DNA of 64,000 bases from Escherichia coli (GTDB lineage: Bacteria > Pseudomonadota > Gammaproteobacteria > Enterobacterales > Enterobacteriaceae), in assembly GCF_030013595.1 (NCBI RefSeq), contig NZ_CP122768.1; one strand, written 5' to 3'. A program made the translations under genes and the position numbers. Positions 4,132-35,038 of the stretch are shown here, piece by piece. The first letter of the stretch is position 1. Every line of letters starts with the position of its first letter. Below the pieces are notes generated by a model. That model was not told the DNA's origin. It searched no databases and saw only the letters and a program-made list of their open reading frames with translations.

Positions 4132-6372
4132 ATGGCAAAAAACACATCTTGCGGTGTCCAACTGCGTATTCGTGGCAAAGTGCAGGGCGTCGGTTTTCGT
4201 CCGTTTGTCTGGCAGCTGGCACAGCAATTAAATCTTCACGGCGATGTCTGTAATGACGGCGATGGAGTGGAAGTCCGGCTGCTGGAAGACCCGGAAACGT
4301 TTCTTGTGCAGTTGCATCAGCACTGCCCGCCGCTGGCGCGTATTGATAGCGTCGAGCGTGAGCCGTTTATCTGGTCACAACTGCCCACCGAGTTCACTAT
4401 CCGTCAGAGCACAGGCGGAGTCATGAATACGCAAATTGTTCCCGATGCCGCGACTTGTCCTGCCTGTCTTGCTGAAATGAATACCCCGGGCGAGCGGCGT
4501 TATCGTTATCCGTTTATCAACTGTACCCACTGCGGCCCACGTTTCACCATTATTCGCGCCATGCCTTACGACCGCCCGTTTACCGTGATGGCGGCGTTTC
4601 CGCTGTGTTCGGCCTGTGACAAAGAATATCGCGACCCGCTCGATCGTCGCTTCCACGCCCAGCCGGTGGCCTGCCCGGAGTGTGGCCCCCATCTTGAATG
4701 GGTAAGTCATGGTGAACATGCAGAACAAGAGGCGGCATTACAGGCAGCTATCGCACAGTTAAAAATGGGCAACATTGTCGCCATCAAAGGGATTGGCGGA
4801 TTTCATCTCGCCTGCGATGCGCGTAACAGTAACGCGGTGGCGACACTTCGGGCGCGCAAACATCGCCCGGCGAAACCGCTGGCGGTCATGTTGCCAACGG
4901 CAGAAGGTTTACCAGACGCTGCGCGCCAGTTGCTCACCACACCCGCCGCGCCGATTGTGCTGGTGGATAAAAAAAACGTTCCTGAGCTTTGTGATGATAT
5001 CGCCCCTGGCCTTAATGAAGTCGGGGTGATGTTGCCTGCGAACCCGCTCCAGCATTTGCTGTTACAGGAACTGCAATGCCCGCTGGTGATGACCTCCGGC
5101 AACCTGAGCGGTAAACCACCGGCTATCAGCAACGAACAGGCGCTGGCGGATTTGCAGGGCATTGCCGACGGATTCTTGATACATAACCGCGACATCGTGC
5201 AGCGGATGGATGATTCGGTGGTGCGCGAAAGCGGCGAAATGCTGCGCCGTTCGCGGGGGTATGTGCCGGATGCGCTGGCTTTGCCTCCGGGCTTTAAAAA
5301 TGTTCCGCCTGTGCTGTGTCTCGGCGCGGATCTGAAAAATACCTTCTGCCTGGTGCGCGGTGAACAAGCGGTGTTGAGTCAGCATCTGGGCGATTTAAGT
5401 GACGATGGCATCCAGATGCAGTGGCGCGAAGCGTTACGCCTGATGCAAAACATCTACGATTTTACCCCGCAATACGTTGTGCATGACGCGCATCCGGGCT
5501 ATGTCTCCAGCCAGTGGGCGCGCGAAATGAATCTGCCGACGCAAACGGTGCTGCATCATCATGCTCATGCGGCGGCGTGTCTGGCAGAACATCACTGGCC
5601 ACTGGATGGCGGTGATGTCATTGCGTTGACGCTCGACGGTATCGGTATGGGGGAGAACGGCGCTTTGTGGGGCGGCGAATGCCTGCGGGTGAACTATCGC
5701 GAATGTGAGCACCTGGGCGGCTTGCCTGCGGTGGCGCTTCCGGGGGGCGATTTGGCTGCAAAGCAGCCGTGGCGTAACCTGCTGGCGCAGTGCCTGCGCT
5801 TTGTGCCGGAGTGGCAGAATTACCCTGAAACGACAAGTGTGCAACAGCAAAACTGGAGCGTGCTGGCGCGGGCCATTGAGCGTGGAATTAACGCGCCGCT
5901 GGCGTCATCGTGTGGGCGTTTGTTCGATGCTGTGGCGGCGGCACTGGGCTGTGCGCCAGCCACGTTAAGTTATGAAGGTGAAGCGGCTTGTGCTCTGGAG
6001 GCGCTCGCAGCCTCATGCGACGGAGTGACGCATCCGGTGACGATGCCGCTGGTGGACAATCAACTGGATCTCGCCACTTTCTGGCAGCAGTGGCTGAACT
6101 GGCAGGCACCGGTTAATCAACGCGCGTGGGCGTTTCATGATGCGCTGGCGCAGGGTTTTGCCGCGTTGATGCGTGAGCAGGCCACGATGCGCGGTATCAC
6201 TACGCTGGTATTTAGCGGTGGGGTTATTCATAACCGATTGCTGCGTACACGCCTGGCGCATTATCTCGCTGATTTCACATTGCTATTTCCACAGAGTTTA
6301 CCGGCGGGTGATGGCGGCTTGTCTCTGGGGCAGGGGGTTATTGCTGCGGCGCGCATCCTGCATGCTGCATAG
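4132..6372 (+). CDS. hypF: Hydrogenase maturation carbamoyltransferase HypF
   Basis: Acylphosphatase-like N-terminus, two Zn-finger CxxC pairs, YrdC and Kae1-like domains; start taken at [24 protein letters not shown]. Confidence 0.9.
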
Positions 6373-22851: not shown

Positions 22852-22944
22852 GGTGAGGTGGCCGAGAGGCTGAAGGCGCTCCCCTGCTAAGGGAGTATGC
22901 GGTCAAAAGCTGCATCCGGGGTTCGAATCCCCGCCTCACCGCCA
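22852..22944 (+). tRNA. serV: tRNA-Ser (anticodon GCU), long variable arm
   Basis: 93-nt cloverleaf ending in CCA; anticodon loop CTGCTAA. Confidence 0.9.
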
Positions 22945-22947
22945 TTT

Positions 22948-23024
22948 GCATCCGTAGCTCAGCTGGATAGAGTACTCGGCTACGAACCGAGCGGTCGGAG
23001 GTTCGAATCCTCCCGGATGCACCA
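22948..23024 (+). tRNA. tRNA-Arg (anticodon ACG), copy 1
   Basis: 77 nt GCATCCGTAGCTCAGCTGGATAGAGTACTCGGCTACGAACCGAGCGGTCGGAGGTTCGAATCCTCCCGGATGCACCA. Confidence 0.9.
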
Positions 23025-23139
23025 TATTCTACGTACTTTCAGCGATGAAGGTATAGAAGAGGTGGCGGTAATAACCGCAGGCACCAGGGAGGATAACGTT
23101 GCTTTAGCAACGGCCCGAAGGGCGAGCCGCAAGGCGAGT

Positions 23140-23158
23140 AATCCTCCCGGATGCACCA
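23140..23158 (+). pseudogene. 3'-terminal remnant of a tRNA-Arg copy (AATCCTCCCGGATGCACCA)
   Basis: 19-nt exact match to the 3' end of the flanking tRNA-Arg genes, embedded in an over-long spacer. Confidence 0.5.
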
Positions 23159-23222
23159 TCTCTTACTTGATACGGCTTTAGTAGCGGTATCAAAAAATCT
23201 GCAGTAAAGTAAGTTTCCCGAT

Positions 23223-23299
23223 GCATCCGTAGCTCAGCTGGATAGAGTACTCGGCTACGAACCGAGCGGTCGGAGGTTCGAATCCTCCCGGATGCACCA
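23223..23299 (+). tRNA. tRNA-Arg (ACG), copy 2
   Basis: Identical 77-nt sequence. Confidence 0.9.
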
Positions 23300-23401
23300 T
23301 ATTCTCCGTAATCATCAGTGATGATGGTTAAGATGGATTTTCTTATTTGATATGGCTTTAGTAGCGGTATCAATATCAGCAGTAAAATAAGTTTTCCCGA
23401 T

Positions 23402-23478
23402 GCATCCGTAGCTCAGCTGGATAGAGTACTCGGCTACGAACCGAGCGGTCGGAGGTTCGAATCCTCCCGGATGCACCA
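23402..23478 (+). tRNA. tRNA-Arg (ACG), copy 3
   Basis: Identical 77-nt sequence. Confidence 0.9.
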
Positions 23479-26316: not shown

Positions 26317-26389
26317 AAAAAGGCCACTCGTGAGTGGCCAAAATTTCATCTCTGAATTCAGGGATGATGATAACAAATGCGCGTCTTTC
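26317..26389 (-). ncRNA. micA: MicA (SraD) Hfq-dependent sRNA with intrinsic terminator
   Basis: Minus strand reads GAAAGACGCGCATTTGTTATCATCATCCCTGAATTCAGAGATGAAATTTTGGCCACTCACGAGTGGCCTTTTT, matching MicA as I recall it; located between gshA and luxS. Confidence 0.85.
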
Positions 26390-27029: not shown

Positions 27030-27708
27030 TTTTCAAATGCGCCTATAAGGCTCTCTTACCAGCCGCGCCCTAACAGGCGCACACGATCTGACATTTGCAT
27101 CCAACTTCGTTACTTACGGCCCGTAAACGGGCTGCCCGGATAGGGAATCGATAACTGATCTCCCATTTTATCCTCTTCAAGCTGGTGCTTTATGTAATCC
27201 TGTATCTTCGCCGTGTTCTTACCCACTGTATCGACGTAGTACCCTCTGCACCAGAACTCCCTGTTCCTGTATTTGAATTTCAAATCACCAAACTGCTCGT
27301 AAAGCATCAGACTGCTTTTCCCTTTCAGATATCCCATAAACCCGGATACGCTCATTTTGGGCGGGATCTCCACAAGCATATGGATATGATCTGCACAGCA
27401 TTCAGCTTCCAGAATCCGTACGCTTTTCCACTCACACAGCTTTCTCAAAATACTGCCTATTGCTCTACGCTTCTCTCTGTAGAACACCTGTCTTCGGTAT
27501 TTTGGCGCAAAAACTATGTGATATTTACAGTTCCATCGGGTGTGCGCTAAGCTCTTTTCGTTCCCCATTGGGACCCCCTTTTGATTTCTTGTTTGACACT
27601 TGCAGTTGCCAGACCGCAAGGTGTTTTAACAAATCAAAAGGGGTTTTAATAACTGGCTCAAAGCTGAAAGCTTTCCGGAACCCCCAGCCTAGCTGGGGGT
27701 TTTCTGTG
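27030..27708 (-). mobile_element. IS200-family insertion sequence (IS200/IS605 family); ends approximate
   Basis: HUH tnpA ORF; left end (high coordinates) has two hairpins typical of IS200: cccccagc..gctggggg terminator-like hairpin and a long stem-loop occluding the tnpA RBS; lies between convergent luxS and emrB terminators. Confidence 0.8.
27110..27568 (-). CDS. tnpA: IS200 transposase TnpA (HUH single-strand transposase)
   Basis: 152 aa from MGNEKSLAHTRWNCKYHIVFAPKYRRQ; HxH motif (HIHMLV) and catalytic Tyr (RGYYVDT). Confidence 0.9.
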   Translation of the reverse strand: MGNEKSLAHTRWNCKYHIVFAPKYRRQVFYREKRRAIGSILRKLCEWKSVRILEAECCADHIHMLVEIPPKMSVSGFMGYLKGKSSLMLYEQFGDLKFKYRNREFWCRGYYVDTVGKNTAKIQDYIKHQLEEDKMGDQLSIPYPGSPFTGRK

Positions 27709-33593: not shown

Positions 33594-34045
33594 TATTTTT
33601 GTTCATCAGGTGATGATTAAGCTGGGAATCAATAATAGCGGATGTTTATGAATGTGGGGCGAAAGATAGATTGTTAAAATGTGCGGGTAATGGGGAGAGG
33701 GTATTTGAAGGTGAAATATGCCACTAAGGCAAATGTTACGTTCACTTCCAGATTATAGCTACTTTGTCACTATTTTGCTGGTGAACGTGCCAGGGTGGCT
33801 CAGTCGCCACCACCCTGGCGACCCAGGCTTTTGGCACAAAATCGCCGCTACGCGGTACATTCGACTTATTTCTTACGGCTATCGGGTACGGGCGCGAGGT
33901 AACATCCCTGTAAGACGCGCCCTCGCCGCGCATCCCTGCGCGTCGCCCCGGCCTTCAGAAAACGTCTCATCGATTTTCAGCCGGATTAAAACCATCGCTG
34001 CAATTGTTTTACTCACATGAGCATTATCTGCGCGGTTATCAATAT

Positions 34046-35038
34046 TTACTTCTGCGCTGCCAGCGCCTCATTCACCCAGCCATCGAACTGCTGCTGGTGG
34101 GCTTTGATCCAGCCATCAACGTGGCCCTGAATATCGCCTTCTGAGGCTTTGCCGTCATGCATAATGGCGTTCTGGGCGTTAATATCTGCCACTGGTAACT
34201 GCATAATGGCAAACAGTTTCGCTGCTGCCGGGTTTTTCTCGGCCCAGGCTTTGTTGGCAACGATATGCATGGTACTGACCGGGAAGCCGTAATTCGCGCC
34301 ATTCGGCAGTTTGGTATCGGCATTTTTATCGCCCGGCAGTGCGGAGAACGGCACCTGCAACCAGACCACATCTTTCCCCGGTTTCAGTTCGTTACTCACC
34401 CAGTACGGCGTCCAGGTGTAGTAAAACACCGGCTTACCCTCTTTGTAACGACTGATGGTGTCAGCCATCATCGCTGCGTAGTTCCCCTGATTATGCGTCA
34501 CGGTATTGGTCAGTCCATACGCGGCAAGCTGGTGGTTGATCGCACCTTCGCAGCCCCAGCCAGGGTTACAGCCGGTTAAATCCGCTTTACCGTCGCCGTT
34601 GGTATCGAACAGTTTGGCGATCTTCGGATCTTTCAGTTGCGCGATGTTGGTGATTTTGTACTGGTCGGCAGTTTTCTTATCGATCAGGTAACCCTGTGCC
34701 GCGCCGTTAACAAATACTCCTTCACGATAAAATTTCTTATCGCCACCGGCAGCTTCGTACATGTTGTCATGCAGTGGCGTCCAGTTCACTGCGGTGAAGG
34801 TTGCATCGCCGGAAGCAAGCGAGGTGTAGCCAACGTTGTAATCCACTTCGCTGGGTTTATTGACGGTATAACCTAATTTCTCCAGCGCGCGGCTGACCAG
34901 CAGCGTCTGGAAAGTTTCTTCGGTGATGGTGCTCTGAACCGGATTAACAGTAATGCCTTTGCCCGGCAGGTCGGCAGCAAAAGTTTGTGTAGAGATAAGC
35001 GTGGCAAACGCTGTCGCAAAAAGTACGCTATGTCGCAT
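34046..35038 (-). CDS. proX: Glycine betaine/proline ABC transporter periplasmic binding protein
   Basis: 330 aa from [28 protein letters not shown] (signal peptide). Confidence 0.95.

Follow-up and report, generated by a model that had tools for sequence, protein, structure and literature searches.

The TRIP1 repeats of Escherichia coli come from Rudd (1999) and were surveyed by Li et al. (2024; PMC10888264), who catalogued five loci (aqpZ-ybjE, putP-ycdN, yohI-yohG, alx-sstT and copA-ybaP) using a filter of more than 80% coverage by K-12 copies. Two of the K-12 copies, one between aqpZ and lysO and one downstream of dusC (dusC-yohP), are TRIP1a and TRIP1c. Here we describe a divergent member of this family in the spacer between proX and a ygaY-like gene, within a stretch of 64,000 nt of E. 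coli DNA (contig NZ_CP122768.1 of assembly GCF_030013595.1). We refer to this whole stretch as the window, and coordinates of the locus are positions in it.

TRIP1 repeats were equated with Replication Risk Sequences (RRS) by Pham et al. (PMC10592627), who described 222-bp repeats near lysO and dusC, each ~650 kb from dif. In their work, polymerases are blocked by a G-quadruplex (G4) motif, GGGGGTGCAGGGGGCGGCGG, located in the template of the lagging strand, and the gaps that result are occupied by RecA and SSB. Ectopic RRS were active wherever they were placed, and inverted RRS gave neither a RecA nor an SSB peak in vivo (PMC10592627). According to a 2026 preprint (PMC13308219), RRS-C, the complementary strand, on the lagging-strand template still produces gaps in roughly two out of three encounters in vitro. 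In the RRS literature of 2023–2026 (Pham et al. 2023, 2024; Kusi-Appauh et al. 2026), RRS are presented as two conserved repeats which contain a G4, program gaps left after replication and are essential under some conditions; the positions of the canonical copies are conserved, and some species have additional RRS. A second described system that bears on the element is the TwoAYGGAY RNA motif (RF01731; Weinberg et al. 2010), for which a tandem G.A feature has been described and binding of CsrA has been proposed (PMC4333381). The CsrA consensus obtained by SELEX, ruACArGGAugu, is quoted in PMC5694010.

The spacer extends from the start codon of the ygaY-like gene to the stop codon of proX (33594–34045, 452 bp) and is 100% identical to that of E. 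coli strain 1190. Its repeat core, which begins ~41 nt after the proX stop codon, belongs to the TRIP1/RRS family. In blastn searches, the core was 82% identical to TRIP1a over 156 nt and 78% identical to TRIP1c over 187 nt, the full-length alignment was collinear, and homology to the 222-bp lysO/dusC RRS repeat was present over the full length. The nearest copies (79–83% identity) occur in the asmA-yegH and mmuM-tauA spacers. With 271 nt, the core falls within the length range of the family (~264–273 bp, with a 'double-Y' multi-hairpin fold), and the consensus fold is found in its own minimum free energy (MFE) structure. The core is thus a full-length, structurally intact, AT-drifted TRIP1/RRS member of a divergent subfamily, here designated subfamily B, at a site that was not previously listed. 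Both the identity and the structure of the proX element are well supported. Nhmmer detected no second family copy within the window.

We aligned 52 distinct Enterobacteriaceae copies with MAFFT (285 columns). The consensus structure comprised 67 pairs in 10 helices, in which 89.6% of cells were paired, compared to 35–41% in controls whose 3' partners were slid by 1–3 columns. Compensatory changes were present at 39 of the 67 pairs, and none of 500 shuffles matched the observed score. The window copy kept 60 of the 67 consensus pairs, which is within the family range, and its own MFE structure reproduced the architecture. On the G-rich strand, a long-range helix (P1) and inner helices (P2a–c) enclose two adjacent hairpins, HP1 and HP2; a mini-hairpin (P3) is stacked on P1, followed by a hairpin whose 5' arm is rich in G and whose 3' arm is rich in C (P5) and by a terminal hairpin with a variable loop (P6). 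The loops of HP1 and HP2 read C-A-N-G-G-A-Y-G family-wide, and their GGA motifs, which lie ~28 nt apart, are invariant in all 52 copies except for a single G to A change at column 74, while the stems covary.

Three features specific for the G-rich strand were conserved: the loop GGA, a tandem G.A/A.G in P2a (columns 39–40/149–150; GA in 49 and AG in 48 of 52 copies) and the GCG-N-AGC mini-hairpin P3. The last was kept in 13 copies found independently by nhmmer, and among these, subfamily C showed covariation of the outer pairs (CCGCG.AGCGG to GTGCG.AGCAC). Neither CANGGATG nor GCGNAGC was enriched in the window as a whole; the weight of these motifs comes from their family-wide conservation and not from their occurrence. 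When wobble pairs were used to compare the two strands over all helices, 70 G.U and 64 A.C pairs were counted, with a bias in P2a (19 to 2) and in the outer part of HP2 (12 to 0). Mini-hairpins with GNA loops of the d(GCGAAGC) type are unusually stable in single-stranded DNA and would fit a role at the DNA level.

The 5' arm of P5 and adjoining bases (33805–33827) are homologous to the 'G4' segment of the K-12 RRS. However, the G4 motif is absent from the window copy, in which the homologous segment reads CCTGGGTCGCCAGGGTGGTGGCG. Its G4Hunter score was 0.66 versus 1.30 in K-12 (best 25-nt window, 1.08 versus 1.84), and no G3+ quadruplex pattern was found in the window copy. Across the aligned family, the 'G4' segment makes up the 5' arm of a hairpin whose pairs covary; in several subfamilies, whose arms have low G4 propensity, it is not G4-capable. 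The conserved feature is hairpin P5, not a quadruplex.

The initial annotation, made from the sequence alone, had described a spacer of about 450 bp with GC-rich hairpins, no convincing coding frame and no recognizable REP (repetitive extragenic palindrome) consensus. The hairpins proved to be real: the palindrome that it named has arms of 10 nt each (33789–33798 and 33810–33819) which are 100% complementary, and seven more inverted repeats lie within 33738–34057. Folding of the 271-nt core also went beyond that of shuffled sequences, both as minus-strand RNA (MFE −107.6 kcal/mol, z = −3.5) and as plus-strand DNA (−53.6 kcal/mol, z = −4.1), with none of 200 shuffles equal in either case. We likewise found no credible coding frame: none of the three open reading frames (ORFs) of the spacer matched a Pfam family at threshold, and the frame of the only sizeable one, of 100 aa, is not kept in sister copies. 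Of the identities that were offered for the spacer, a repeat element was the correct one, and in blastn searches, E. coli genomes contained the core at a median of 3 places, with 10 as the highest number. A decayed protein-coding gene was rejected: it would have to be reconciled with the lack of a Pfam family, with frame-breaking indels between copies and with compensatory substitutions that follow helices rather than codons.

The spacer was also said to be longer than typical, and a comparison with other E. coli genomes accounts for this. In K-12 and O157, the spacer is 191 bp long and carries a REP pair. The 93 bp next to ygaY are common to both alleles; beyond them, the REP pair (~98 bp, in 90% of strains) contrasts with ~355 bp of unrelated DNA in the window (33687–34042). 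In a comparison of 5,426 complete E. coli genomes, this cassette allele was present in 543 (10.0%) and the REP allele in 4,858 (89.5%). The absence of a REP consensus thus holds for the window allele, from which the consensus hairpin (GCCKGATGCGRCG...CGYCTTATCMGGCCTAC) is missing and in which an Rfam scan gave no match to the REP-type naRNA4, whereas the K-12 and O157 alleles do carry the REP pair. The proX-ygaY region is biallelic: where most E. coli have a REP pair after proX, a non-coding cassette stands in its place here. A CCCTCACCC..CCCTCTCCCC palindromic unit, of which the cassette tail represents a part, trails many subfamily-B copies in Enterobacter. In these, the unit reads CCCTCACCC..CCCTCTCCC..GGGAGAGGG, as it does in a further stretch (L003, ~2860–2960), and the window keeps one arm. 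This unit may resemble the E. coli 'box C' repeat.

We consider it likely that the spacer is a cassette allele with a divergent, G4-less TRIP1/RRS member which folds in a strand-specific manner and is weak or inert at the proX locus. The element would act by strand-specific self-folding, with the G-rich strand forming the P1/HP1/HP2/P3/P5/P6 structure. The plus strand of the window has a positive GC skew, the flanks of the element on its sense strand have a skew of −0.026, and proX is located on the plus strand of K-12 in the left replichore. If synteny is K-12-like, the negative skew of the sense strand and the K-12 map together make the G-rich strand the template of the leading strand, opposite to its arrangement in native RRS. 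When the skew measure was checked on Escherichia subfamily-A copies, all six were positive on the G-rich strand. At fork passage, the C-rich (window plus) strand would serve as lagging-strand template, where it could fold (−53.6 kcal/mol) and might hinder Okazaki synthesis no more than weakly, in the manner of RRS-C. Since no terminator is predicted between the proX stop codon and the sense strand that follows it, this strand probably also forms part of the proVWX transcript as its 3' untranslated region (UTR), in which it would replace the REP pair as the structured 3' end. The proX copy would most likely be a neutral or selfish insertion that is tolerated in a 'safe' 3' spacer, is co-transcribed with proVWX and presents no more than a weak replication obstacle.

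Several points weigh against parts of this interpretation. The GC-skew and ORF-context tests rest on short flanks and crude ORF calls, and some members of the 52-copy alignment were recovered with a search pattern that makes the P3 region invariant by design. The window copy is the least stable of those compared (as DNA, −61.6/−53.6 kcal/mol, versus approximately −80 to −84/−74 to −80 kcal/mol for K-12 RRS). Given this low stability and the null result for inverted RRS in vivo, any replication effect of the proX copy may be nil. In addition, neither a passive obstacle or junk DNA nor the published G4 model accounts for the strict conservation of loop sequences and strand-specific motifs. Coordinates of the element, its helices and its surroundings are collected in Table 1.

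Table 1. Features of the proX-ygaY spacer and its flanks (positions in the window)
Feature	Position	Strand	Remarks
Core element, TRIP1/RRS family, subfamily B, 271 nt	33734..34004	minus (G-rich sense strand with GGA loops)	blastn 77–83% to the asmA-yegH, mmuM-tauA, aqpZ-lysO (TRIP1a) and dusC-yohP (TRIP1c) copies
Cassette 5' leader, proX stop codon to core	34005..34042	minus	Loose homology with the leader seen in Enterobacter copies of subfamily B
P1, 5' strand (CCGGCUGAAAAUCG)	33971..33984	minus	Long-range pairing with 33831–33844, encloses both GGA hairpins; two basal pairs are C.A mismatches here; columns 30/175 AU 25, UA 17, GC 6
HP1, loop CAGGGAUG (33931–33938)	33924..33945	minus	Columns 66/82 CG 30, GC 20; columns 67/81 CG 27, GC 23
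HP2, loop CAGGGAUG (33903–33910)	33890..33922	minus	UUACAGGGAUGU matches the CsrA SELEX consensus ruACArGGAugu at 11/12 positions
P2a, 3' strand	33859..33865	minus	Pairs with 33964–33970; conserved tandem G.A/A.G; A-U/U-A here versus consensus C-G/C-G (compensated)
P3 mini-hairpin, CCGCG-U-AGCGG (GCG-N-AGC type)	33845..33855	minus	Stacked on P1
P5 hairpin	33789..33819	minus	Palindrome named in the initial annotation; 8/10 pairs with compensatory change
P6 hairpin (CGUUCAC ... GUGAACG)	33739..33787	minus	Variable 35-nt loop; K-12 copies CGCUCC...GGAGCG
Cassette 3' tail	33687..33733	minus	One arm of the CCCTCACCC..CCCTCTCCCC palindromic unit, second arm (GGGGAGAGGG) missing here; from alignment with flanks of Enterobacter and mmuM-tauA copies
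ygaY-proximal 93 bp	33594..33686	minus	92–95% identical to K-12, to O157 and to almost every E. coli genome; outside the repeat; presumed ygaY promoter and 5' UTR
Spurious 100-aa ORF	33718..34020	plus	Antisense of the repeat; no Pfam family at threshold; frame broken by 1-nt indels in sister copies
proX	34046..35038	minus	RefSeq annotation of the 100% identical strain 1190; upstream gene, same strand as the element sense strand
ygaY-like major facilitator superfamily (MFS) transporter gene, intact, 394 aa	32409..33593	minus	Downstream gene, same strand

The gene order on the minus strand is proV, proW, proX, the spacer, the ygaY-like MFS gene, ygaZ, ygaH and emrR. The ygaY gene is intact (a 394-aa MFS protein) in both the window strain and O157, and is annotated as a pseudogene in K-12.

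We further examined the distribution of the family with a search pattern from its conserved center, ACCGCG-N1-2-AGCGGCGATTT, which fixes the P3 region. Family copies were found in Escherichia (E. albertii and other species), Enterobacter, Citrobacter, Lelliottia, Pseudescherichia, Shimwellia and Pseudocitrobacter; Klebsiella carries the family as well. Pattern matches outside Enterobacteriaceae were taken as chance: with 17 specified bases, a search of 298 Gb should give ~70 accidental matches, and these sequences lacked the remainder of the element. Enterobacter asburiae (INSAq146; L046–L061) had at least 18 pattern matches, many of them exactly at contig ends, where the copies appear to break assemblies. 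In Enterobacter sp. ENT03 (L086–L092), at least 7 copies of the G4 type were present, three of them within ~28 kb. In Pseudocitrobacter, Pseudescherichia and several Enterobacter, family copies occurred as head-to-head pairs 35–105 bp apart (e.g., L074, 1868–2123(−)/2178–2429(+); also L021, L086–L092, L109 and L117). These pairs combine a subfamily A or B copy with a divergent 'C' copy (GTCCCCGCTGAAAYCGGCGAGCCGGAG...) and form an imperfect palindrome of ~550 bp. One copy in Citrobacter sp. FP75 (L022, 5237–5503) lay ~100 bp from a phage-type C4 antisense RNA/isrK locus (5604–5789), at the edge of prophage-like DNA.

The asmA-yegH spacer differed between strains. Strain p11B had a full subfamily-B element, and in strain WL297 the same element was inverted relative to asmA and yegH and bracketed by inverted REPs (stretches L002, 2959–3227, and L008, 2501–2769). 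In K-12, this spacer had a remnant of the 3' ~155 nt from which the GGA hairpins were deleted (L011, 1502–1656); it is TRIP1-like and comes in addition to the three named K-12 copies.

Such variation could point to a non-autonomous element resembling miniature inverted-repeat transposable elements (MITEs), whose conserved fold would be the substrate of a trans-acting recombinase or transposase and whose proX copy would be the relic of one insertion. Presence or absence was polymorphic at several loci, the asmA-yegH copies had opposite orientations in two strains, and the copy numbers in E. asburiae and Enterobacter sp. ENT03 are consistent with multiplication. The 36 loci surveyed comprised 20 convergent, 8 tandem sense and 8 tandem antisense spacers and no divergent one, a REP-like preference for 3' spacers. 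Such avoidance of divergent-promoter spacers, an association with REP-bearing spacers and the lack of an orientation bias (local GC skew was positive for 20 and negative for 19 subfamily-B copies) would also fit a mobile element. However, neither terminal inverted repeats nor a target-site duplication were visible at filled-versus-empty junctions, and no associated transposase gene was found. The family was also nearly absent from true plasmids: 27 of 72,556 plasmid records had a copy, and these were chromosome-like or captured chromosomal segments, with essentially no association with insertion sequences or plasmids. The canonical copies, moreover, are positionally conserved. We regard this explanation as possible but unlikely.

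It seems unlikely that the proX copy is a working RRS, which would make it a further site of programmed post-replication gaps away from the Ter flanks. Its full-length homology to RRS and the retained fold argue for such a role, as do the activity of ectopic RRS anywhere, the gaps triggered in vitro by the RRS-C strand on the lagging-strand template and the additional RRS of some species. On the other hand, the copy lacks the G4 motif, has the reverse of the native orientation, for which no RecA/SSB peak was seen in vivo, and has the lowest predicted stability of the copies compared. A copy carried by only 10% of strains also cannot be essential.

A role of the transcribed element as a functional TwoAYGGAY-like RNA appears improbable. 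Such an RNA would be transcribed either alone or as the 3' end of the proVWX mRNA, which is induced osmotically, and its GGA hairpins would bind a CsrA dimer, as a decoy or sponge, or another RNA-binding protein. The Rfam covariance-model scan returned no family at its gathering score in the spacer, only sub-threshold matches to TwoAYGGAY; the small RNA that the initial annotation listed among its options was neither confirmed nor refuted. The window core scored 28.2 bits (E = 0.08; gathering score, 43). Eight family copies matched this model at 28–40 bits, always on the G-rich strand (sister copies, 29–40 bits), and every score was below 43. The shared architecture with its tandem G.A, the invariant loop GGA amid covarying stems, the near-complete CsrA consensus of HP2 with GGA in the loop and the ~28-nt spacing are consistent with an RNA. 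The sense strand is moreover the proX strand with no terminator found between them, and G.U exceeded A.C in several helices. However, a consensus scan found no promoter-like or terminator-like sites in the spacer, and the equal numbers of sense and antisense tandem contexts show that the sense strand is not preferentially transcribed; the K-12 lysO copy is antisense to both neighbors. Neither dusC nor ybjE was flagged in K-12 in the per-gene CsrA crosslinking and immunoprecipitation (CLIP) table of Potts et al. (2017), a table that is uninformative for intergenic RNA. The overall wobble count was not decisive, and G.T wobble, sheared G.A pairs and GNA loops stabilize single-stranded DNA as well.

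A broader and more speculative proposal, to which we assign a low probability, is that the whole TRIP1/RRS family is more than an arbitrary stable fold with a G4 and represents a TwoAYGGAY-related ligand-binding module, whose G-rich-strand motifs (GGA loops, tandem G.A and GCG-N-AGC mini-hairpin) would be read by CsrA (as RNA) or by a protein that binds hairpins of single-stranded DNA. The K-12 G4 would then be a lineage-specific addition, and in the 10% of E. coli strains that have the proX copy, the osmotically induced proU mRNA would carry a CsrA-type ligand with two sites in its 3' UTR. Finally, descent from a decayed protein-coding gene or a degenerate REP or bacterial interspersed mosaic element (BIME) can practically be dismissed: a 100-aa plus-strand ORF spans the region and other strains have REP pairs at this site, but a Pfam family at threshold, a REP consensus and a naRNA4 match were all absent, and the indels break the frame while the helices show compensatory substitutions.

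Two other regions of the window were noted. A tRNA gene (56336–56408) is followed by low-GC DNA (0.40–0.44, versus ~0.52 elsewhere) up to the window end (64000), an arrangement suggestive of an island that entered by horizontal transfer at the tRNA gene. Core RNAs at Rfam gathering scores included a four-tRNA cluster, MicA and STnc490 (22852–23475, 26318–26389 and 27578–27701).

The divergent TRIP1/RRS member at proX shows that the RRS family has a G4-less subfamily at other, polymorphic E. coli loci (proX-ygaY, asmA-yegH and mmuM-tauA), which is multiplied in Enterobacter without orientation preference. The conserved family features are a covarying multi-helix fold and invariant GGA loops, and a G-quadruplex is not among them. 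Natural variants are thus available for testing which feature triggers gaps. RRS are also linked here to an orphan Rfam motif that was proposed to bind CsrA. For annotation, the element accounts for an 'empty' 450-bp spacer and for a site that is biallelic, with the cassette in 10% of strains.

Compared to TRIP1, the window copy can be aligned over the whole ~270 nt, has the same helices, occupies the same intergenic place soon after a stop codon and is likewise present or absent between strains. However, in blastn it was 77–83% identical to TRIP1a and TRIP1c over only 58–69% of its length and would therefore fail the >80% coverage filter of Li et al. (2024). The proX-ygaY site is not among the five catalogued loci, the G+C content of the copy (55%, versus 62–65%) is the lowest of the copies compared, and the copy has a CCCTCTCCCC tail and belongs to a subfamily that is multi-copy in Enterobacter. 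REP elements and BIMEs share its 3' intergenic niche just past a stop codon and its palindromic, GC-rich and dispersed nature, and it substitutes for a REP pair at proX; nevertheless, it lacks the REP consensus and has a multi-branch fold of ~270 nt instead of a 35-nt hairpin.

The likeness to TwoAYGGAY consists of outer and inner stems around two adjacent hairpins with C-A-N-G-G-A-U-G loops and of the tandem G.A in the stem. In contrast to AYGGAY, the loops of the window copy read AGGGAU (AUGGAU in sister copies), and the family element, whose expression as RNA would be a prediction from sequence, is ~100 nt longer, with the extra 3' hairpins P3, P5 and P6. The CsrB and CsrC sponge RNAs have many GGA sites and their own promoter and terminator, whereas the window element has only two GGA hairpins, and no promoter or terminator was found.

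With canonical RRS, the window copy shares membership in the same repeat family, a GC-rich composition and extensive secondary structure on both strands. It differs in belonging to the separate subfamily B, whose 5' end has GGTCCGGCTG.AAATCG and whose 3' end has CGTTCAC...GTGAACGGAA. Its K-12-equivalent position is 2.807 Mb, ~0.58 Mb beyond RRS-dusC (2.229 Mb) and a long way from the Ter flanks; it does not belong to the inverted pair located ~650 kb on either side of dif, has no partner copy in the window and, at 10% of strains, is dispensable. Finally, while the published picture of RRS is that of two positioned copies, some Enterobacter genomes instead show multiplied copies.

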